Shown here one piece after another: positions 3,551 to 19,743 of a DNA stretch of 24,000 nucleotides. Position 1 is the stretch's first letter. Every line of letters starts with the position of its first letter. The notes under the pieces are model-generated. The model was not told the DNA's origin. It saw only the letters and a list, made by a program, of their open reading frames with translations, and did no database searches. The DNA comes from Beijerinckiaceae bacterium (GTDB lineage: Bacteria; Pseudomonadota; Alphaproteobacteria; Rhizobiales; Beijerinckiaceae), in NCBI GenBank assembly GCA_024304885.1, contig JALJOM010000003.1, positions 382,110 through 406,109 of the forward strand, given 5' to 3'. A program made the position numbers and the translations under genes.

Positions 3551-3972
3551 AGTGCGGCGAAGTCGATCGGATCGATGTAGAGCGGCGGAAAGCCGCCGCC
3601 GCGAACCGCATCCGCGATGATCTGGCGGGCGAAAGGAAACAGAAGCCTCGGGCATTCGATCATGACGATCGGATGCATGTCGTCGGGCCGGATGTTGATC
3701 AGCCGGAACAGGCCGGCGTAGTCGAGCTCGAACTTGAACAGGAGGTCCTGGTCCGCTCCAGCCGAGCCTTCGAGCAGGATATCGACCTCGAAGTCCGACT
3801 CGGCCACCTGTCGCGCGTTGACATTGACCTGGATCGCGATATTCGGCGCCTTCTCTTGCGGCCCGAGCGAGCGCGGCGCATTGGGATTCTCGAAGGAGAA
3901 ATCCTTCGTGTACTGCACCATCGCATTGATCGCGGGCGCGCCGTCGCCCAGGGCTCCGTTTCCGTCTGTCAT
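3490..3972 (-). CDS. secB: Protein-export chaperone SecB
   Basis: ORF track 3490..4164 with an internal ATG at 3972 (rc of cat 3970-3972). MTDGNG...AINAMVQYTKDFSFENPNAP...MIECPRLLFPFARQIIADAVRGGGFPPLYIDPIDFAALY is an unmistakable SecB sequence of about 160 aa. Confidence 0.9.
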   Translation of the reverse strand: MTDGNGALGDGAPAINAMVQYTKDFSFENPNAPRSLGPQEKAPNIAIQVNVNARQVAESDFEVDILLEGSAGADQDLLFKFELDYAGLFRLINIRPDDMHPIVMIECPRLLFPFARQIIADAVRGGGFPPLYIDPIDFAALYRKRLDEVAAASAAPTPAA

Positions 3973-4193
3973 CTCGTGTCTCCTGCGGCTGCGGGTAGCA
4001 TGGAAGCAGAGCGAGGACAAGCCGACCTCCCGAAAGGCTCGCGCCTCGCCCTCGCGACCCGTTCGGGGGCTACGGAACCCGCGCGCCGGTGCTATATGAA
4101 TAGTTCGACGCACCTTTCGGTGGCCACCGCGTCGCGCGAGGGATACAGCGTGCCGCGGCGTCACGACGACGCGCGAAAGGAGCCCTGCGAAGA

Positions 4194-4823
4194 ATGGATC
4201 ACGTCGAGCCGCGCCTCTATCTGATCACGCCCCTCGTTTCCGACGCCGCCGCGTTCCGGCCCGTGCTCGAGGCCGCGCTCGGCGCCGGCGACGTGGCCTG
4301 TGTCCTCGTCCGCACGGCGACCATGGACGCGCCGGCTCGGCGACAGGCCGTCGGGCTCCTGGCCGGGGTGACGCAGGGACAGGGGGCCGCCTGCCTCGTC
4401 GAGAACGATGCCGCGCTCGCGCTCGCCGCGGGCGCGGACGGGGTTCACCTCGAGGCCACCGACGCGGTGCTCGCGCCGGCTCTCGACTCCTTGCAGCCCG
4501 GGCATATCGTCGGGGCAGGGGGGCTCACGACTCGCGATGCGGCCATGACCGCGGGGGAGGCGGGCGTCGACTACCTCATGTTCGGGGGGCCTGCGTCGAC
4601 CGAGCCTCATGCGGCCGTCGTCGAGCGGGTCGCCTGGTGGGCCGAGATTTTCAATGTTCCCTGCGTCGGCTACGCCGCGACCCTCGCCGGCATTGCCGAC
4701 CTCGTGCGTGCGGGAGCCGATTTCGTCGCCCTCTGCGATGCCGTCTTCGCCGATCCGCGCGGGGCCGCCGCAGCTTTGCGCGAGGCCTCGGCGATCCTGT
4801 CCGACCTGCACACTGCGGCGTGA
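4194..4823 (+). CDS. Thiamine-phosphate synthase-like (TMP-TENI family) protein
   Basis: ORF track 4194..4823. It shows the PRLYLITP...GADGVHL...GAD.V pattern of ThiE-like TIM barrels. It is divergent from secB and followed 6 nt later by the Sel1 gene. Confidence 0.65.
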   Translation: MDHVEPRLYLITPLVSDAAAFRPVLEAALGAGDVACVLVRTATMDAPARRQAVGLLAGVTQGQGAACLVENDAALALAAGADGVHLEATDAVLAPALDSLQPGHIVGAGGLTTRDAAMTAGEAGVDYLMFGGPASTEPHAAVVERVAWWAEIFNVPCVGYAATLAGIADLVRAGADFVALCDAVFADPRGAAAALREASAILSDLHTAA

Positions 4824-4828
4824 CGCCG

Positions 4829-5806
4829 ATGCGGGCCGCGCTGCGCCGGATTCTCGCTGCCGCGCTCGGCGCCGCGCTCGGCTTGCCGGCGGGCGCGCAG
4901 CCTCTCCCGCCGGCCCGCCCCGCCGCCGGCCCGCCGCCCGTCACGGCGTCCCCCTCGCCTCGCGGCGACGAGGGGCGCGATCTGGCCTTCGGCGCCTTCC
5001 AGCGCGGCTATTACTCGACGGCCTTGCTCGAGGCCATGAAGCGGATCGAGGCCGACCCCTCCGACGCCGCGGCGATGACCCTCGTCGGTGAGCTCTATGC
5101 GCAAGGGCTCTCCGTCCGGCGTGACCCTGCGGAAGCCGCGCGATGGTACCGCCTCGCGGCCGACCGCGGCGATCGGCAGGCGACCTTCGTGCTCGCGGTC
5201 GCCTTGCTGAAAGGGGACGGCATCCCGAAGGACAAGGCCGCCGCGGCTGCACTCTTCGAGAAGGCCGCCGCGCAGGGCCATCCAGGCGCGCTCTACAATC
5301 TCGGGGTCCTCGCGCTCGAAGGCAACGGCGTCGTCCCCGACTATCCCAAGGCTGCGACCTTGTTCCGGCGAGCCGCCGATCAGGGCGACGCCGATGCCGC
5401 CTATGCGCTCGGCATCCTCTATCGCAACGGCAACGGGGTCGAGAAGAGCGAAGCGCGCGCCGCCGAATGGATCGCGCGCGCTGCGGCCGAGCGCAACGTC
5501 GCGGCCGAGGTCGAATATGCCATCATGCTCTTCAACGGCATCGGCATCGAGAAGGACGAGACGGCGGCCGCGAAACTGTTCCTGAAGGCGGCGGCGAAGG
5601 ACAATCCCGTTGCACAAAATCGGATCGCGCGCCTTTTCGCCTCCGGCCGCGGCGTCGAGAGAAACCCCGTCGAGGCGATGAAATGGCACATTCTCGCGCG
5701 CAGCGCGGGCGTGACCGACAGCTGGCTCGACGGCGAGCTCGCGAAGCTCTCCGCCGAAAATCGCGAAGCGGTCGATGCGGCTGTGCGCAAATATATTGGG
5801 CGCTAG
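4829..5806 (+). CDS. Exported Sel1-repeat (TPR-like) protein
   Basis: ORF track 4637..5806. The ATG at 4829 gives a signal-peptide-like MRAALRRILAAALGAALGLPAGAQP. Repeated units of about 36 aa follow, of the form A..W[YI]..AA..G...A...LG.LY..G.GV..D (Sel1 consensus). Confidence 0.85.
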   Translation: MRAALRRILAAALGAALGLPAGAQPLPPARPAAGPPPVTASPSPRGDEGRDLAFGAFQRGYYSTALLEAMKRIEADPSDAAAMTLVGELYAQGLSVRRDPAEAARWYRLAADRGDRQATFVLAVALLKGDGIPKDKAAAAALFEKAAAQGHPGALYNLGVLALEGNGVVPDYPKAATLFRRAADQGDADAAYALGILYRNGNGVEKSEARAAEWIARAAAERNVAAEVEYAIMLFNGIGIEKDETAAAKLFLKAAAKDNPVAQNRIARLFASGRGVERNPVEAMKWHILARSAGVTDSWLDGELAKLSAENREAVDAAVRKYIGR

Positions 5807-5989: not shown

Positions 5990-6791
5990 CTCGAGCCCGT
6001 GCACGGCCTTGCCCGTGACCGCGGCCGCTCCTGCCTTCCCCCGATAGCGTGGCATTAATCTTCTCGAGAAAATCCTTGCGGCCTTCGAACAGACCTTCGA
6101 GTGACGCGAAGGGGAGATTTCTCGGCATCCGTCCCGGCTTCTCGGCTCGCGCTTTCGCGGGCAGATCTACGATCCCGGTCGATTTCAGCGAATTGGCGAG
6201 ATCTATGACGTTCGAGAACGTGAAGCTCTAGAGCGGGATGCGGGCGGGAAACCGCTGTACACTTTTGGAATCGATCCATGACTTTGGATCGAGTCGATCC
6301 AAAGTCATCGTGATCTAGTGGCGATTGATCCTCTTCAGCCGCTCGAGACGGCCCTGCTGTGCCGCTTTGGAGGCGTCCGCCGGTTCGTATCTCGTTCTGC
6401 GCTCGGCACTATTCGAGGCGAGGGCAATGTAGAGCTCCTTCCTGTGATGGAGCGCGAGCCAAGCCTCCCAGTGCGTGTAGGAAATGCCTTTGCCATCGCC
6501 GAGCGGCGGCAAAGTGGTGGCCAGACTCGGATCCTTGGCCAGAAGTGCGCGTGCATCCCGTTGGACGGGTGCCGCTCCGGCCATGTCGCCGACGAAATGA
6601 ACGGCGCCGTTACAATGGCTTATGTAGCTATCGAGCTCGTCGAGGATTCTACGTCCGAGGTCCTTCGAATCCTCCTGGATTTTGACCTCGACATTATACC
6701 GCGTGAGGTCGTGACGGAGAGCTTCGTGTTAGGAGCCGAATTCGGCGGACACCGCCGACACGGAGATCCGAACTGTTTTCGGCTCCGGCAT
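5990..6791 (-). pseudogene. Decayed TIR-like (DUF4062-type) / STAND NTPase gene remnant
   Basis: My translation from the ATG (rc 6789-6791) is MPEPKTVRISVSAVSAEFGS*HEALRHDLTRYNVEVKIQEDSKDLGRRILDELDSYISHCNGAVHFVGDMAGAAP...ISYTHWEAWLALHHRKELYIA...RLERLKRINRH*. There is an in-frame TAA at 6729-6731. After a 90-nt element (6228-6317) the same frame continues SFTFSNVIDLANSLKSTGIVDLPAKARAEKPGRMPRNLPFASLEGLFEGRKDFLEKINATLSGEG. A +1 shift then gives AGAAAVTGKAVHGLE, which looks like the approach to a P-loop, and the similarity stops at about 5990. Confidence 0.5.
6228..6318. repeat. Palindromic CTAG-bounded element, copy D, inserted in the STAND remnant
   Basis: The sequence runs ctagagc...gatctag. 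It contains a perfect 15-bp palindrome atgactttggatcga-g-tcgatccaaagtcat at 6278-6308. It shares gaagctctagagc with the ubiE-proximal end of copy B (8438-8450). Confidence 0.55.
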
Positions 6792-6960
6792 GAGCGGCCC
6801 AAAAAATCAAAAGCGCGGTTCGTCCGGCCTGTGCAACTCGCCTGAGTAGGATGAAGGTCGGGATCCAACCTCGGTCGCTCTGTTCCAAATGCAAGCGCGC
6901 CGCGAACCCGCGAAGTGGTCCGCTTCGCTGGAAATGGTCTCGACGTAATTTTCGAATAAT

Positions 6961-12788: not shown

Positions 12789-13177
12789 GGTTCTCCGCGC
12801 AGAGCATGGCACCTCCCCTGACCGAGGAGTCGAGCGGAGACAAATCGCTAAAGGCAGGGAGCGGTCAAGCGTTTGCGTAACAGGGGGTCATATCAGGCCG
12901 ACTCTAGCGGCGCTGTTGGGCTCAGAATGGAGCATCAGGCTCTGGCTCGCTGTAAGGAGCTGGGCCATTGTGATTCAAGGTCTCCCGATGACCTTCATGA
13001 CGCGCAGCATTTCGGCCCATCAACGATCAGCACAGTCGGCTCGAAACACCGTTGCCGAGGGATGCGTGAGGTGAGCCACGTCTCGAAGCTCGGCGGGTGA
13101 TCCGGCCTCGCTTCATGCACTCAAATACAGCGGATACTGGATCGATGCGTGGGCCGTCGTACGCTGGCACAAGATAC

Positions 13178-13534
13178 TCATGGAATACCCATCGCCTCTA
13201 CAAAGTCCTTCGCCTCTTTCAACCCGGCGCGCGTGATAGCACGGTGAATTTTGATCGCTTCGATTTTCTGCGCGCTCATTAAAGCTTCGATGAAATCCTT
13301 CGCCTGTTCGAGGCTCGCACCTGTAACCTCTCGATAAATCTTAATGGCATCAATCTTATTGGCGTTGCCGATGCGTTCTGCCAATTGTTGGTATGCATCC
13401 TTTTGGGGAACCACCGTTATTGCGTTTTCGATTGCAACCATACGCTCCTGAATTTCAGCAATGACTCTATCACGTGGGTCCGAGCTCTGCCGCATTTGAA
13501 AGCTCGCATTAGCCTGCGTGATAGGGTTGCTCAC
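13178..13534 (-). CDS. Protein with two tandem ribosomal L7/L12 C-terminal-domain-like modules (probably the 3' part of the gene above it)
   Basis: ORF track 13178..13534, with a GTG start and no SD. KIDAIKIYREVTGASLEQAKDFIEAL and KIEAIKIHRAITRAGLKEAKDFVEAM match the K[IV]xVIKxVRxxTGLGLKEAKDLVE core of L7/L12 CTD. It is in frame with 13592..14032. Confidence 0.55.
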   Translation of the reverse strand: MSNPITQANASFQMRQSSDPRDRVIAEIQERMVAIENAITVVPQKDAYQQLAERIGNANKIDAIKIYREVTGASLEQAKDFIEALMSAQKIEAIKIHRAITRAGLKEAKDFVEAMGIP

Positions 13535-13591
13535 TTTGTAGTTAGGATTTTTAATTGCTCTGGCAGAACCTATTACACGCTCTCTAGCTTG

Positions 13592-13996
13592 TTAAATGCT
13601 TTGCCAATCCGTCAGGTCAACAAAAATAGTACGATGAGCTACAGTATCAAAAGGCAGCGCTGTGCCTGCCCTTGCGATATGAATCGTGGGCTTCTGGGTT
13701 GAGTGTCGGATTCCCAATTCATAAAATGCATTTGGATTCAGGTCGGTAAGGTCGGCAACGACCAGCTCAGCATTGATGATATCGCTAATAACCCTATCGC
13801 CGATCATGCCAGGGTCCGCGTCCTCGTCCGCGCGCCTCACGACATAGTTAAACTCCTCGTTCTGCAGGACGTGCTTTATTATGGCGTTGAGGAGCATGTC
13901 AGAATGCTTTCGCTCCACGCTTCCGTCTTTGCCGATCGGTCCGACAACGAAGCAAAGTGGGCCGTCGCCTTCGGTCAATTTCTTTATGTTAGCCAT
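13592..13996 (-). CDS. Nucleoside 2-deoxyribosyltransferase-like / TIR-like domain protein
   Basis: ORF track 13592..14032; the likely ATG is at 13996 (MANIKK...). LCFVVGPIG...DRVISDIINAELVVADLTDLNPNAFYELGIRHSTQKPTIHI is the Rossmann-like pattern with the conserved Glu of NDT-like domains. It ends at a TAA that is in frame with the downstream ORF. Confidence 0.6.
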   Translation of the reverse strand: MANIKKLTEGDGPLCFVVGPIGKDGSVERKHSDMLLNAIIKHVLQNEEFNYVVRRADEDADPGMIGDRVISDIINAELVVADLTDLNPNAFYELGIRHSTQKPTIHIARAGTALPFDTVAHRTIFVDLTDWQSI

Positions 13997-14229
13997 TTTT
14001 ATCTTCGATCGTCGGGGCTGCGCACGGTCCATGTAACCCGGGGCGCGTGGATGAAGCCTAGCTTGCGATACTTTAGTCCAAATGCAATCAAGTTTACATC
14101 ACTGTAAAGATGGGCGAACACCGTACGAAATTGCAGGTTGTTGACGGTCTCTTCGAGCGGCCTCCCAACCTGGCGACTTACCCCACTCCAGCGCGGATTC
14201 TGGGCGAGGTCCAGACGCGGCATGCCGCT

Positions 14230-14565
14230 CTATCGGCTCGAGACGTGGGCCGGAGTGGACGGAGTCGGGTCACGTGCCTGCCGCTCGAACGCGATGCGCA
14301 GCCTGGTTCCGGTCGCCTCGGCGAAGCGCTCGAGAGTCCTTGTCGAGGGTTTTACTCGCCCGCTCTCGAGGCGAGCGACGACGGCCTGCGTCGTTCCCAT
14401 CGCTTCCGCGACTTGCTCCTGTGTCATCTCGGCATCGGCACGGGCCTTGATCATGGCGGCAGCGAGCGCGAACTCGTCCTCCAAGGCGTCATAAGCGGCC
14501 TTGAACTCAGGGTCCTTCATCCTTTCTTCGGCCCATTCATCGACGGGAATGTGTCGTCGGGTCAT
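14230..14565 (-). CDS. higA: HTH (XRE-family) antitoxin, HigA-like
   Basis: ORF track 14230..14565. AEMTQEQVAEAMGTTQAVVARLESGRVKPSTRTLERFAEATG is an XRE helix-turn-helix. AAGGAGG lies upstream, and there is an ATGA start/stop overlap with the toxin gene. Confidence 0.8.
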   Translation of the reverse strand: MTRRHIPVDEWAEERMKDPEFKAAYDALEDEFALAAAMIKARADAEMTQEQVAEAMGTTQAVVARLESGRVKPSTRTLERFAEATGTRLRIAFERQARDPTPSTPAHVSSR

Positions 14566-14885
14566 TCGACCTCCTTTGCCCTGCTCAGGGCGATCTCGAT
14601 CTCGTGGCGGGGAGTCTTCCGGGTCTTCTTCGCGAAGACATGCACCACGACAACCCGCCGACCTGTGGCCGTGACATAGGCGGCTCGGGCAATACCGTCC
14701 TTGCCCTTCATGCGCATTTCCCAGATCGGGCCTTCGAGATGCTTCACATAGGGCTCCCGCATACGTTCGAGCCCCAAGGTCTGGATCAATTGTGCGATCC
14801 GCAAGAAGGCCGCTCCGATGTCGCTCGGCAGCGCGTCGAGCTCTGCTCTGACGTCATCGTTCAAGAACTCCACGCTCCAACTCAT
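14562..14885 (-). CDS. higB: RelE/ParE-superfamily toxin, HigB / phage Gp49-like
   Basis: ORF track 14562..14885. ...YVKHLEGPIWEMRMKGKDGIARAAYVTATGRRVVVVHVFAKKTRKTPRHEIEIA... is the typical Gp49/HigB core. The toxin-first gene order fits HigBA. Confidence 0.8.
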   Translation of the reverse strand: MSWSVEFLNDDVRAELDALPSDIGAAFLRIAQLIQTLGLERMREPYVKHLEGPIWEMRMKGKDGIARAAYVTATGRRVVVVHVFAKKTRKTPRHEIEIALSRAKEVE

Positions 14886-14978
14886 TTCGATTCATATATC
14901 AATTTTGCAATAATCCCGCCAGCGCGCGCTACAGTGCCGCGGCGACCGGTTTCGCTGCCCCTCGGGGAGCAGGGTTGG

Positions 14979-15421: not shown

Positions 15422-16660
15422 ATGTCCGCCGAGCCCAAAGACATCAAGAAAGTGATCCTCGCCTATTCGGGCGGCCTCGATACCTCGATCATCCTCAAAT
15501 GGCTGCAGACCACCTATGGCTGCGAGGTCGTGACCTTCACCGCCGATCTCGGCCAAGGCGAGGAGCTTTCGCCCGCCCGCGAGAAGGCGATCTTGCTCGG
15601 GATCAAGCCGGAAAACATCTTCATCGAGGATCTGCGCGAGGAATTCGTCCGCGACTACGTCTTCCCGATGTTTCGCGCCAATGCCCAATACGAGGGGCTC
15701 TATCTTCTCGGCACCTCGATCGCGCGCCCGCTCATCGCGAAAAAGCAGATCGAGATCGCCCGCAAGACCGGGGCGGACGCCGTTGCCCATGGCGCGACCG
15801 GCAAGGGCAACGACCAGGTTCGCTTCGAGCTCTCCTATTATGCCCTGGAGCCGGACATCAAGGTGATCGCCCCCTGGCGCGAATGGGATCTCGCGTCACG
15901 CACCGCGCTCCTCGAGTTCGCCGAGAAGCACCAGATCCCGATCGCCAAGGACAAGCGCGGCGAGGCGCCCTTCTCGGTCGATGCCAACCTCCTGCATTGC
16001 TCCTCCGAGGGCAAGGTGCTGGAGGACCCGGCCCAGGAGGTGCCGGACTATGTCTACTCGCGCACCCTCGATCCCGAGAAGGCGCCGGATGCGCCGACCT
16101 ATATCGAGGTGGATTTCGAGAAGGGCGACGCGGTCGGAATCGATGGCGAGCCGCTTTCCCCCGCGACATTGCTGGCCAAGCTCAACGAGCTCGGCCGCGC
16201 CAACGGAATCGGAAGGCTCGATCTCGTCGAGAATCGCTTCGTCGGGATGAAGTCGCGCGGCATGTACGAGACGCCGGGCGGCACGATCCTTCTCGTCGCG
16301 CATCGCGGCATCGAGCAGATCACGCTCGATCGCGGCGCGGCGCATCTGAAGGACGAGCTGATGCCGAAATATGCCGAGCTCATCTACAACGGGTTCTGGT
16401 TCTCGCCCGAGCGCGAGATGCTGCAGGCCGCAATCGATCATAGCCAAGCCTATGTGACCGGCCGCGTGCGGTTGAAGCTCTACAAGGGATCGGTCGGCGT
16501 GGTCGGGCGGTCGAGCCCCTATTCCCTCTATGACCAGGATCTCGTGACCTTCGAGGAAGGCGCGGTCGCCTACGACCATCGCGACGCGGCGGGTTTCATC
16601 AAGCTCAATGCGCTCAGGCTGCGCACGCTCGGCAAGCGCGCACGCAAGGTGGCCGGGTAG
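15422..16660 (+). CDS. argG: Argininosuccinate synthase
   Basis: ORF track 15422..16660. Recognisable stretches are [20 protein letters not shown]...TADLGQGEE...[13 protein letters not shown]... Confidence 0.95.
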
Positions 16661-16763
16661 GATCGCCCGATCTGTAGAATTCTAGCGAGTGAGGCACCGG
16701 TCGCTCGAGCTTTTTCCTCCACATTGTGCCTGTCTTTGCGATCGATCGGGCGGGAATGGTTCC

Positions 16764-17072
16764 ATGTGGAAGAGAAGCATCATCCGGGTCGCGCTTTCCG
16801 TGGTGATCTCGAGCGTCGCGCACGTCGGGCAGATGTCGTTCGGGCATGCTCAGGTCCAAGGCCTCGACACACCGAATCGCGCCGATTGCCCCGGCGGCTT
16901 TGTCGAGGGCCTCGGCTGTAGCCGCCCCCGTCCGGTCGGGCCCGGCATCCAGGACAGCGACCAGGGCTGGCAACGCGATTGGCGCGATTTCGGAGCGGGG
17001 GATCCGGGCTTGTCGATCATCTACGGCGACGAGGGCGGGCCGCGTCGGTTCCGTCCGCGGTTCCGCGACTAG
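16764..17072 (+). CDS. Small exported Arg/Asp/Gly/Trp-rich protein, paralogue 1
   Basis: ORF track 16689..17072, with an internal ATG at 16764. The signal-like N-terminus is MWKRSIIRVALSVVISSVAHVGQMSFGHAQ. It shares its 5' leader (atcgatcggg...tccATGtgg), the AQ.(F)VQGLD motif, a Cys pair and the W.R[DE]WRDF motif with paralogue 2. Third codon positions are G/C-rich. Confidence 0.5.
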   Translation: MWKRSIIRVALSVVISSVAHVGQMSFGHAQVQGLDTPNRADCPGGFVEGLGCSRPRPVGPGIQDSDQGWQRDWRDFGAGDPGLSIIYGDEGGPRRFRPRFRD

Positions 17073-17206
17073 AGCGCGTTCCAGCGAAGCGACCATGCGC
17101 CACGCCGCGCAGATGTGTTGGATTTTAACGATGCGTGCGCGGCTCGGTTGAGCCTTTTTCGCCAGGATCGACGCTTTCTCGCGAATCGATCGGGGGGCGC
17201 AAATCC

Positions 17207-17671
17207 ATGTGGGGACAAAGCATCGTGGGGCTCGTGCTCGGTGCCGCGATCGGCGGCATCGCTCTCGTCGGTCCGGTCTCGTGCCGGGACGCCGTCGCCC
17301 AAGGCTTCGTCCAAGGCCTCGACGATCTCGGTCGATCGTGGCAAGACCGCGGTCGCGATCATCGGGACGCTTCGAGAGACTGGAGCGACCGGGACGGATG
17401 CCGTGGGGGCGCCGGCCTCGACTGCGACGGAAGACGCCATCGCCGAGACCACCGCGATGCCGACCACGGCGATCGCTGGCGGCACGAGTGGCGCGATTTC
17501 GACTCCCGTCATTCGCGCGGCTGGGGTCCAGGCGATGGGGGCGGAAGCGATGCGCGGGGTCGGTGGCATCGCGGACCCGGCGGCTTCGAGCCTCCCCTTC
17601 GCGACTACGGCGGGGGCGATTTCGACGGCGCGCCGCGCGGCATGGGCCTGCCCTACTGGGCTCCCGATTGA
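17207..17671 (+). CDS. Small exported/anchored Arg/Asp/His/Gly/Trp-rich protein, paralogue 2
   Basis: ORF track 17135..17671, with an internal ATG at 17207. MWGQSIVGLVLGAAIGGIALVGPV is followed by ...RDHRDASRDWSDRDGCRGGAGLDCDGRRHRRDHRDADHGDRWRHEWRDFD... Third codon positions are G/C-rich. Confidence 0.5.
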   Translation: MWGQSIVGLVLGAAIGGIALVGPVSCRDAVAQGFVQGLDDLGRSWQDRGRDHRDASRDWSDRDGCRGGAGLDCDGRRHRRDHRDADHGDRWRHEWRDFDSRHSRGWGPGDGGGSDARGRWHRGPGGFEPPLRDYGGGDFDGAPRGMGLPYWAPD

Positions 17672-17745
17672 GCAAGCGCCGAGCGTCCTCAGCTCCTGTT
17701 CATCTTCGTGCCTGTAACACCGCGCCCGAGCGACAGGAGCAAGAC

Positions 17746-18210
17746 ATGAAGATCGCAGCGAGTGCCGTCATCGGGCTCTCGATCCTATTGGGCGTGGGCG
17801 GCGCGGATACCGCTCGCGCGATGGCGGCGAGCCGAGGATCCGGCGCGACCATGGCCGAAGTGCCTCTGCCGCTCGAGCCGGCCCAATATGATTGGGGCGG
17901 GCAGCCCTATTGCTGGTATTTCGAGGGCTGGCGGGGACCCGGCTGGTATCGCTGCGGCAATCCTTGGCGGCGCGGCTATGGCTGGGGCGGCGGCCACGGC
18001 TGGCGCGGCTGGGACGTGCCGGGCTGGCGCGGCGAGCACCATGGCCGCCGCCGCGACTGGGACGACCGCGGACGCCGGCACGATTGGGACGACAGGGGCC
18101 GTGGACGACGCGACTGGGGCGACGACGGGCACGGTCGGCGCGGGGGATGGGGCGGCGGCGACGACGGCGATCGGCGGGGCAGAGGCAGAGGCCGCGACGA
18201 GGACGGCTAA
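17746..18210 (+). CDS. Small exported Trp/Gly/Arg/Asp-rich protein
   Basis: It is in frame within ORF 17209..18210. The ATG at 17746 is preceded by AGGAG (17735-17739). The signal peptide is MKIAASAVIGLSILLGVGGADTARA. Then comes YDWGGQPYCWYFEGWRGPGWYRCGNPWRRGYGWGGGHGWRGW and a DW(D/G)D.G..RR repeat tail. A hairpin terminator follows. Confidence 0.6.
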   Translation: MKIAASAVIGLSILLGVGGADTARAMAASRGSGATMAEVPLPLEPAQYDWGGQPYCWYFEGWRGPGWYRCGNPWRRGYGWGGGHGWRGWDVPGWRGEHHGRRRDWDDRGRRHDWDDRGRGRRDWGDDGHGRRGGWGGGDDGDRRGRGRGRDEDG

Positions 18211-18231
18211 GAGGCCCGACGGCAAAGCGAA

Positions 18232-18268
18232 GGCCCCGATGCACAGGGCATGCGGGGCCGGGTTTTCG
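18232..18268 (+). terminator. Putative intrinsic terminator
   Basis: The stem is ggccccg(atgc)-acaggg-(gcat)gcggggcc, followed by gggttttcgc. It begins 22 nt after the stop at 18208-18210. Confidence 0.5.
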
Positions 18269-18664
18269 CTATCTTGCGAAATGCTGGTTGTGGACGACCA
18301 GCCATGTTTCGAAGCCGAACGCGCGTGGCCTTTGCTTGTTCGTGCTTCCGTCTGACTTCCCGAGCTATCGGCGGCGCGTCTCGAAAATCAGCGCTCAATT
18401 CTTCCGACGCACCGTGACCCTGCAGCACGCACGGGTCGATCGTTTTGCCCCGGTGGCGTCATGCTCCTCTCGATTCTGTTCCAAACAGCTGGCCACTGAG
18501 AGAGCCGGCCAGCAGCTCTCGTCGCCCTCTATCGAGGTCCCGCTCGAGGGGCTCGCCGTGAACATGGACCGCGCCATGGTTTCACGGCTTCCGAGACCAT
18601 AAAGGTGGACCCGCACCCCTTGTTGGTCAAGTGAAAAAACCAGCCTGCGACATTCTCGACCGGT

Positions 18665-19645
18665 TCAGAAACGTGTCCGTTCGTGCGCTTTTTCCATCGC
18701 GCCGTACTTGCGCTTCCAATCCGCTGGGTTCAGCGCCTGGCGCGGCTCGGTCCAGATCTCGGCACGCCGATAGCCTTGCACGAAAAGGAGCGCGGTGAGA
18801 TCGGCGCGATCGATCCGCGCCTGCGCCGCGGCGGCGACGATGGGCTTCGCATGATAGGCGATGCCGAGACCGGCCTCCTGCAGCATGGCGAGATCATTGG
18901 CGCCGTCGCCGACCGCGAGCGTCTCCGCGGCGGCGAGCGCCAGCCGCTCACGGGTCTCGATCAAGGCGTCGAGCTTCGCGGCCTTGCCGAGGATCGGCTC
19001 CGCCACGCGGCCTTCGAGCTTGTCGTTTGCGCCGACGAGGAGCCTGTTCGCGCGATGCTCGTGGAAGCCGAGCTTCTCGGCGACGGCTCCGGTGAAGAGC
19101 GTGAAGCCGCCGGAGACGAGCACGCAATGCGCGCCGTCGCGCCGCATGGTCTGGACGAGGGCGCGGCCTCCCGGCGTGAGCGTGATCTTTCGCGCGAGGA
19201 CCCGCGAGACGACCGCGACGGGCAAGCCTTCCAGCACGGCGACGCGCTCGCGGAGCGCCGGCTCGAACTCGATCTCGCCGCGCATGGCGCGTTCGGTGAT
19301 CGCCGCGACGAGATCCTTCTTGCCGATCTCGGCGGCGAGCTCGTCGATACATTCCTGGCCGATCATGGTCGAATCCATGTCGGCGAGCAGCAGCTTCTTG
19401 CGCCGTCCCTCCGCGCCCTGGACGACGACATCGATCGCCGCCGATCCGAGCCTGCCGCGCAGCCGGTCGGCGATCGCACGGGCGTCGGCGCCGGGCTCTG
19501 GCGTGAACGGCAGATCGACCGCTATGCCCATGTCGAGCCACGAGGGCTCGGAGGCCTGCGGCAATGCCTGATGCGCCAGCCGGACCACGTCCTGCGTGAT
19601 CAGCGGAAAGCTCGGGTTGCAGACGAGGGTCGCGACATGGGTCAT
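18665..19645 (-). CDS. serB: Phosphoserine phosphatase SerB
   Basis: ORF track 18665..19681; the likely ATG is at 19645 (MTHVATLVCNP...). KKLLLADMDSTMIGQECIDELA is HAD motif I (DxDST), and ...VGDGANDLAML... is motif III. Confidence 0.85.
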   Translation of the reverse strand: MTHVATLVCNPSFPLITQDVVRLAHQALPQASEPSWLDMGIAVDLPFTPEPGADARAIADRLRGRLGSAAIDVVVQGAEGRRKKLLLADMDSTMIGQECIDELAAEIGKKDLVAAITERAMRGEIEFEPALRERVAVLEGLPVAVVSRVLARKITLTPGGRALVQTMRRDGAHCVLVSGGFTLFTGAVAEKLGFHEHRANRLLVGANDKLEGRVAEPILGKAAKLDALIETRERLALAAAETLAVGDGANDLAMLQEAGLGIAYHAKPIVAAAAQARIDRADLTALLFVQGYRRAEIWTEPRQALNPADWKRKYGAMEKAHERTRF

Positions 19646-19743
19646 GAGTTGTCTCGCGGAGGGCGGCTCGGTTTCACCCATGCGGCCGGATTCGCCGGGC
19701 CATCTTCGCCTCGAGGGGAACGATGCCGCCCCGCGGTACGCGC

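Follow-up and report, generated by a model that had tools for sequence, protein, structure and literature searches.

Background

Classical hydrophilins are rich in Lys, Glu and Gly and poor in Trp, and the Garay-Arroyo criteria for them are reportedly a Gly content above 6 % and a hydrophilicity index above 1, corresponding to a grand average of hydropathy (GRAVY) below -1. The BA14K-like proteins (PF07886) and the NCBI GCG_CRPN (prefix-to-repeats) proteins are small alphaproteobacterial exported proteins in which a Cys-containing prefix is combined with low-complexity repeats. Some bacterial hydrophilins contribute to desiccation tolerance, for example DtpA and DtpB of Acinetobacter baumannii (PMC13552118). 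The present analysis concerns three small open reading frames (ORFs), designated ORF1, ORF2 and ORF3, which follow argG in a 24,000-nucleotide stretch of chromosomal DNA from a Beijerinckiaceae bacterium (GenBank assembly GCA_024304885.1, contig JALJOM010000003.1, positions 382,110 to 406,109). This whole stretch is referred to as the window, and its content of guanine plus cytosine (GC) is approximately 65 %. From their sequences and structural models, the three products are proposed, with a probability of about 55 %, to be Sec-exported, disulfide-looped, largely disordered, hydrophilin-like envelope proteins. Their status as genes and their family assignments are well supported, and the biochemical role is a best guess.

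The window proteins are similar to the hydrophilins and late embryogenesis abundant (LEA)-like proteins, DtpA and DtpB included, in being small, hydrophilic, Gly-rich, charged and of low complexity, with predicted disorder. They differ in having no sequence homology to these proteins, in the addition of signal peptides and a predicted disulfide loop, and in relying on Arg and Asp, with Trp abundant and Lys absent. ORF2 (GRAVY -1.62, 21 % Gly) and ORF3 (GRAVY -1.68, 26 % Gly) fall within the hydrophilin composition limits, and ORF1 (GRAVY -0.98, 19 % Gly) is borderline. A signal peptide, a short conserved Cys module and a repetitive region are shared with the BA14K-like and GCG_CRPN proteins, but the motifs are different, and neither ORF1-ORF3 nor the ORF3 family match any Pfam or NCBIfam model. 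Searches of these libraries with ORF1-ORF3 at E values up to 1 returned nothing except a sub-threshold hit to DUF2380 (12 bits, cut-off 26), and 42 members of the ORF3 family searched one by one at E values up to 0.01 returned nothing. A PDB sequence search found no relative of either family, in agreement with the initial annotation of this DNA, made from the letters alone, which had been unable to name a family. Literature searches with the core motif strings retrieved no papers, and keyword searches gave nothing specific. The most similar type of protein is represented by WP_244613656.1, a hypothetical protein of Nitrobacter winogradskyi that belongs to the ORF3 family and has the same signal peptide, the core YCWY..GWRGPGWY.CG..RRGYGWGG and a low-complexity tail; in relatives of this type the tail composition differs, being mostly basic with Gly, Pro, His or Asn. 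The kind of protein, small, exported and of low complexity, is known, and both families and the ORF3 core motif are new to the curated libraries and the searchable literature.

Coding status of ORF1, ORF2 and ORF3

ORF1 (16764..17072; 102 amino acids (aa)), ORF2 (17207..17671; 154 aa, a paralogue of ORF1) and ORF3 (17746..18210; 154 aa) are located on the plus strand. They lie between the argininosuccinate synthase gene argG (15422..16660, plus strand, a 412-aa ORF), which forms a conserved anchor upstream of ORF1, and a convergent, serB-like HAD-family hydrolase gene (18665..19681, minus strand; Pfam HAD/Hydrolase) downstream of ORF3. The three frames, and all of the motifs that the initial annotation had listed for them, were found at the positions given there. 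The closest comparable locus, L004, is a Joint Genome Institute (JGI) metagenome contig with approximately 80 % DNA identity to the window, on which argG is followed by genes of 116, 167 and 174 aa and the HAD gene, as in the window. The argG product is 92 % identical to its L004 orthologue, which carries PF00764/PF20979.

In a codon-aware comparison with L004, the ratio of nonsynonymous to synonymous substitution rates (dN/dS) was 0.44 for ORF1, 0.27 for ORF2 and 0.40 for ORF3, with values of 0.11 for argG and 0.20 for serB. Third codon positions vary most between the two loci, and every indel consists of whole codons. In the plus-strand frames, Cys, Trp, Tyr and Gly are conserved at specific positions across 42 ORF3 homologues and 16 ORF1/ORF2 homologues, and the gene calls of public assemblies follow the same frames. 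The GC content at third codon positions (GC3) is 0.83, 0.74 and 0.80 in ORF1, ORF2 and ORF3, respectively. Artefact frames in the window are Arg-rich (23-39 % Arg in the most extreme of those listed) and poor in Asp and Trp, and the composition of ORF1-ORF3 is therefore unlike that of the usual high-GC artefact. The initial annotation had regarded the three frames as real genes, and protein-level conservation, dN/dS values below 1 and the public gene calls bear this out: on these sequence comparisons ORF1, ORF2 and ORF3 are genuine protein-coding genes.

ORF1/ORF2 family

ORF1 and ORF2 are, by their sequences, tandem paralogues of a tiny, clade-restricted family. They match each other by BLASTP (E=1e-5), and tblastn gave E values down to 2e-10 against the L004 copy. 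Their 5' leaders share the pattern gcga(a)tcgatcggg...tccATGtgg, with DNA similarity extending approximately 85 nt upstream and including a hairpin and T-run. Both N-termini read MW..SI; the motif AQVQGLD of ORF1 corresponds to AQGFVQGLD in ORF2, the Cys pair C42-x9-C52 to C65-x7-C73, and WQRDWRDF to WRHEWRDF. ORF1 has signal-peptide-like residues at approximately 1-29 (...FGHA, then QVQGLD) and the conserved block GPGIQDSDQGWQRDWRDFGAGDPGLSIIYG; in its orthologues (n=12), AxVQGLD, both Cys and (I/E)DSDQGWQRDW are invariant. ORF2 carries an expanded Arg/Asp/His-rich insert and the C-terminal family motif PPLRDYGGGDFDGAPRGMGLPYWAPD.

The residues V, G, L, D and W73 and the two Cys do not vary across the 16 family sequences. 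The family pattern consists of a small-x-small end of the signal peptide followed by (Q/E)V(Q/E)GLD, a CPGGYVEGLGC-type loop and GPGIQDSDQGWQRDW.DF, and the longer members, ORF2 among them, end in RDYGGGDFDG.PRGLGLPYWAPD. Both window proteins fit the consensus (A/G)x(A/G)(Q/E)V(Q/E)GLD, Cys-x7-9-Cys, W..(D/E)W.(D/E)F. Export features were recognised in 15-17 of 17 members, and a small-x-small site stands right before (Q/E)V(Q/E)GLD in 14 of the 17. Signal-peptide calls, here and for ORF3, are a heuristic based on N-terminal features and not SignalP predictions, and the signal-peptide-like N-termini described in the initial annotation are supported family-wide in this sense. The n-region is without a basic residue in two of the 17 members, of which ORF2 alone starts with ATG. 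The start of ORF2 (17207-17221), MWGQSIVGL, is nearly identical to that of the L004 orthologue of ORF1, MWGQKIIGL (L004:2990-3004), its own orthologue there beginning MCRRKIIGF, and the ORF2 N-terminus may have arisen by gene conversion between the paralogues.

A profile search of 5.8 billion proteins recovered 16 members of the family, and six clusters were recovered when 1.84 billion cluster representatives were searched exhaustively with HMMER. Scanning metagenomes with the profile of the ORF1 family gave no confirmed locus. The order argG, ORF1-family gene and convergent serB-like HAD gene is found in the window, L004, L087, L089 and L091, the HAD neighbour being syntenic at all related loci. 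In L087, L089 and L091 a single family gene is located approximately 100 nt past argG and before the convergent HAD gene, and paired genes of the ORF1/ORF2 type are found in the window, in L004 and on one 1.6-kb contig. Sequence similarity and gene order indicate that a single ancestral gene was duplicated together with its leader in the lineage of the window and L004.

ORF3 family

Judged from its conserved core, ORF3 is a member of a widespread, previously undescribed alphaproteobacterial family that is unrelated to ORF1 and ORF2. Homology between the two families was considered and rejected, pairwise comparison being negative and the hhalign probability 9 %. The tandem trio proposed in the initial annotation is thus a duplicated pair, whose paralogy stands on the BLASTP match and the shared leader, next to a gene from an unrelated and much larger family. 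The initial annotation had asked whether the motifs define conserved families; the ORF3 core does so throughout its family, and W..(D/E)W.(D/E)F does so within a tiny one.

The protein collection contained 46 ORF3 homologues, and in GTDB species-representative genomes tblastn confirmed at least 362 loci. Taxonomy and gene neighbours were judged on the best 80 of these loci, which do not include the window genome and in which every named organism is an alphaproteobacterium. Carriers are Bradyrhizobium, Nitrobacter, Afipia, Pseudolabrys, Rhodoplanes, Beijerinckiaceae, Methylocella, Roseiarcus, Caulobacteraceae and Phenylobacterium. Members are built from a signal peptide, a linker with (A)Q(Y/F)xWGG at its end, a core of approximately 40 residues with the signature YCWYxxGWRGPGWYxCGxxxRRGxGWGGxxGWxGW, and a hypervariable low-complexity tail. 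In ORF3 the predicted signal peptide MKIAASAVIGLSILLGVGGADTARA (17746..17820, read from the sequence) ends in a cleavage-type site, TARA followed by MAAS, with the cut placed before M. The conserved core, delimited by the 42-homologue alignment, covers residues 47-89 (17884..18012; QYDWGGQPYCWYFEGWRGPGWYRCGNPWRRGYGWGGGHGWRGW) and contains the C56-x13-C70 loop CWYFEGWRGPGWYRC. The tail, with the stop codon, occupies 18013..18210 and is Lys-free and rich in Arg, Asp, Gly and Trp, with RDWDD-type repeats. Fifteen core columns are invariant in 42 homologues (C56, Y58, W62, G64, G66, Y68, C70, G71, G77, G79, W80, G81, G82, G85 and W86), and ORF3 carries all of them. Family N-termini have Lys or Arg within the first eight residues in 61 of 63 sequences, an uncharged run of at least ten residues in 61 of 63 and an A-x-A site in 55 of 63.

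Lys is absent from 55 of 62 family tails, whereas Arg is present in all (7-41 %). Among the tail types are GNRPG, GGH, GYR, PRP and W-rich repeats and RD(E)F polyampholytes; tails with Arg and acidic residues, like that of the window ORF3, number seven of 62. Pro/Arg tail repeats such as RPPRPGRP and VARPPVVRPRPP were seen in Bradyrhizobium homologues (L012, L032, L044, L049, L080-L085). Because the repeat types differ by lineage, the tail appears to be replaced wholesale between lineages while the core is near-invariant. Tandem pairs of ORF3-family genes occur in some Caulobacteraceae, Pseudolabrys and Roseiarcus (L020:5377-6354, L046:5947-6972, L064:5881-end), and copies were found on separate contigs of one genome, for example in Bradyrhizobium sp. 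Gha and Pseudolabrys SMAG_U3856. An ORF3-type gene adjoins an ORF1/ORF2 pair only in the sublineage of the window, and no ORF1/ORF2 homologues were found beside other members of the ORF3 family. A loose EcfG-like motif, GAAC-N16-18-CGT, precedes 8 of 59 ORF3-family genes versus 23 of 575 other genes (p=0.005); it is located at -60 to -96 in L008, L011, L018, L030, L037, L042, L046 and L070. The 150 nt upstream of the window ORF3 contain no EcfG-type motif.

Composition and predicted structure

Arg, Asp, Gly, Trp and His together account for 48 % of the mature part of ORF1, 69 % of ORF2 and 71 % of ORF3; Lys is absent from all three mature proteins and Trp reaches 10 %. ORF2 contains 18 % Arg, 18 % Asp and 6 % His, and the pI of mature ORF1 is 5.2. 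The net charges of ORF1, ORF2 and ORF3 are -1.2, -1.6 and +2.9, respectively. Each mature protein has exactly one conserved Cys pair.

AlphaFold was run with the family alignments. In the ORF3 model, residues ~45-72 alone reach a predicted local distance difference test (pLDDT) score of approximately 80 and form three short strands around the Cys pair, with pLDDT below 50 outside the core, including the tail. ORF2 was modelled with an N-terminal helix (residues 3-20, pLDDT ~71-79) and a short helix (residues 90-94) and with no other secondary structure, the remainder having pLDDT mostly of 46-56. The low-confidence stretches of both models are consistent with disorder. Foldseek searches of the PDB with the AlphaFold models gave no match.

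Proposed role and alternative explanations

Under the proposed reading, ORF1-ORF3 would leave the cytoplasm through the Sec pathway and lose their signal peptides to signal peptidase I, and periplasmic oxidation would turn the single Cys pairs into short disulfide loops. The mature chains would be largely disordered, very hydrophilic polyelectrolytes, with the aromatic and Arg-rich core of ORF3 as the sole folded, ligand-binding module. Its ligand is probably an anionic or glycan polymer of the envelope; the invariant core residues are aromatic, Gly and Arg, with no metal ligand, and a glycan or anionic-polymer module therefore fits better than a metal site. The tail would serve as a hydrated, charged spacer or coat, a function that fits with its free variation, and the expected benefit is that soil Alphaproteobacteria would better withstand envelope or water stress. 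Envelope or polymer interaction, or a stress-related disordered protein, as suggested in the initial annotation, is compatible with these sequence features. A more specific model, which is speculative and unlikely, is that the ORF3 core is a new disulfide-stapled Trp/Arg/Gly mini-domain that docks on a conserved envelope polymer, such as peptidoglycan glycan, lipopolysaccharide or exopolysaccharide, and displays a fast-evolving polyelectrolyte tail, and that, having been recruited in this lineage beside the duplicated polyampholyte pair ORF1 and ORF2, it would form with them a protective, hydrated gel or coacervate in the periplasm or at the surface during drying.

Several observations weigh against the hydrophilin-like reading. 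The dN/dS values of 0.27-0.44 are relaxed relative to that of argG. The ORF2 n-region has no basic residue, unlike its orthologues, and two of three short Logan contigs carry no gene call for ORF2. A crude ORF picker based on GC3 minus GC2 favoured antisense ORFs over ORF2 and ORF3, and long antisense ORFs are present in L004 too, so that the frame is not decided by composition alone. No operon partner is conserved in the ORF3 family: the most frequent neighbour cluster occurs at 12 of ~80 loci and tracks lineage synteny, and genomic context therefore gives no functional clue for this family. Upstream of ORF3-family genes the EcfG-type motifs give a mixed picture, the loose form being enriched and the strict form GGAAC-N16-17-CGTT not (2 of 59 versus 6 of 575, p=0.17).

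High-GC DNA yields long ORFs in every frame, and this fact, together with the crude composition score and the antisense ORFs of L004, could be taken to mean that the three frames are non-coding artefacts, the true genes being the antisense ORFs 16614-17675 and 17785-18225 (both minus strand) or the region being intergenic. Such an explanation is hardly credible, however, given the invariant Cys, Trp, Tyr and Gly columns of the plus-strand frames in 42 and 16 homologues, the dN/dS values below 1 with third-position excess and codon-sized indels, the signal peptides conserved across both families and the use of the plus frames by gene callers; the antisense products, moreover, consist of Ala/Pro/Val or Arg runs of the sort usual for shadow frames. 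ORF1 and ORF2 might also be held in the membrane by an uncleaved signal anchor, or be lipoproteins, rather than soluble periplasmic proteins. The modelled N-terminal helix of ORF2 and a Cys at its position 26 (VSC) are in keeping with this, but we consider it unlikely: the small-x-small site before (Q/E)V(Q/E)GLD in most members speaks against an anchor, Cys26 lacks conservation, with Phe in ORF1 and Val or Gly in most orthologues at this position, and PVSC/QVSC is not the canonical lipobox [LVI][ASTVI][GAS]C.

Two further explanations assign a different function to the exported proteins. Metal binding, also raised by the initial annotation, would make ORF1-ORF3 periplasmic binding or buffering proteins for Ni, Cu or Zn that act through His and Asp, and the His and Asp contents of ORF2, with clusters such as HRRDHRDADHGDRWRHE, and the six of 62 ORF3-family tails with at least 15 % His (GGH repeats, for example) would suit such a role. 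The ORF3 family has no invariant His, Asp or Glu, however, and in the ORF1/ORF2 family only D39 is invariant (17 of 17), with a DSD block in the ORF1 subgroup and no conserved His. Most ORF3-family tails are rich in Pro, Gly, Asn and Arg, with little His (below 15 % in 56 of 62) and no acidic residues, and no metal transport or resistance genes are among the conserved neighbours; with neither invariant candidate ligands nor metal-related neighbours, metal binding is distinctly improbable. It is very unlikely that the proteins are secreted antimicrobial or bacteriocin-like peptides, built as a cationic Trp/Arg disulfide hairpin with Pro/Arg tails in some homologues. The ORF3 core is modelled as a short, Trp/Arg/Gly-rich, Cys-stapled beta element, and many Bradyrhizobium homologues carry PRP-type tails of the RPPRPGRP kind, which we take to resemble proline-rich antimicrobial peptides. 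Against this, no conserved immunity, export or processing genes are located nearby, the window proteins are near neutral or acidic (net charges as given above), and ORF3 is a stable chromosomal gene, of which a plasmid-borne copy was looked for and not found.

Leaders, terminators and gene layout

A terminator-like hairpin and T-run detected by pattern scan after argG (16686..16716, plus strand) belongs to the conserved ORF1 leader, and this block is kept in L004, L087 and L089. A second, duplicated copy is located in the ORF2 leader (17141..17162, plus strand). No structured RNA or riboswitch was recognised in the shared leaders (fold z ~0, no Rfam match). No sigma-70 promoter was detected when 16400-18800 was scanned, and inspection of the leaders by eye gave no convincing hexamers. 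ORF3 has its own AGGAG ribosome-binding site (17735..17739, plus strand), read from the sequence, with 6 nt between it and the ATG. At the DNA level the tails contain only short, weak tandem repeats. Downstream of ORF3, a strong hairpin GGCCCCG...CGGGGCC with flanking T-runs (18232..18266; stem 18232-18259, then GGGTTTT) is a probable bidirectional terminator, serving ORF3 on the plus strand and a candidate RNA on the minus strand. Its 11 pairs are kept in five syntenic loci, the sole exception being one mismatch in L004, and it is also present at loci without ORF2 and ORF3.

The Logan contigs L001-L003 (SRR31369333, SRR31369334 and SRR31724217; 1.4-1.75 kb) span essentially ORF1-ORF3 alone, and two of them stop at the identical point approximately 128 nt past ORF3. 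If these three data sets are metatranscriptomes, ORF1-ORF3 would be polycistronic and well expressed.

Candidate small RNA downstream of ORF3

Independently of the proteins, conservation and compensatory changes point to a candidate structured small RNA of approximately 370 nt at 18233..18640 on the minus strand. In the window, L004, L087, L089 and L091, loci without ORF2 and ORF3 included, the stretch of approximately 430 nt that separates ORF3 from the HAD gene shows stronger conservation than the protein genes; its indels are of 1-2 nt and it contains no conserved ORF. Copies are located at L004:4550-4985, L087:6470-6905, L089:6545-6960, L091:7045-7470 and L097:7285-7800; the copy in L092-L097 is diverged and is found in an unrelated gene context of another organism, 3' of a flavin monooxygenase gene. 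Both contexts share the putative minus-strand promoter CTTGAC-N18-CAnnAT and the invariant block GAGGAGCATGACGCCACCGGGGCA. Compensatory changes were seen in 15 of 70 predicted pairs of the helices, and the terminal hairpin of the candidate RNA is the ORF3 terminator hairpin. There was no Rfam match, and in 0.93 Mb of alphaproteobacterial loci a covariance model built on the central 168 nt recovered these copies alone. The element is accordingly listed as a candidate new small RNA.

Other features of the window

Other genes of the window encode a polyhydroxybutyrate (PHB) depolymerase, UbiE, an ABC1 kinase, AroC, a rhodanese, a MobA-like protein and a formate-dehydrogenase-type molybdoenzyme. 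A low-GC island is located upstream of argG at 13000-14900 (GC 0.51-0.56 versus ~0.65) and contains genes for a Gp49/HigB-like toxin (14562-14885, minus strand) and a helix-turn-helix (HTH) antitoxin (14230-14565, minus strand), together with small ORFs that have weak matches to phage-associated Pfam families (DUF6793 and, below threshold, Phage_blade). In L004 the corresponding position is occupied by a BrnT/BrnA pair instead, so that toxin-antitoxin cassettes are exchanged next to argG. Further ORFs, 117-175 aa long and without a Pfam match, are located at 3734-4099, 115-468, 952-1323, 6318-6845 and 13592-14032. The GC content rises to 73-74 % within 4000-5500, and a Sel1-repeat protein is encoded at 4637-5806.

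Conclusions

Small exported low-complexity proteins are poorly understood and are easily dismissed as high-GC artefacts, and at the locus described here two families of this kind are under purifying selection. The core of ORF3 is a signature of approximately 40 residues that occurs in hundreds of soil Alphaproteobacteria, without a Pfam or NCBIfam model or a solved structure. The present practical gain is modest and consists of better annotation and a candidate new domain family. Defining the ORF3 domain and its Arg-rich tails would offer a testable way into the organisation or protection of the periplasm and envelope in these bacteria.

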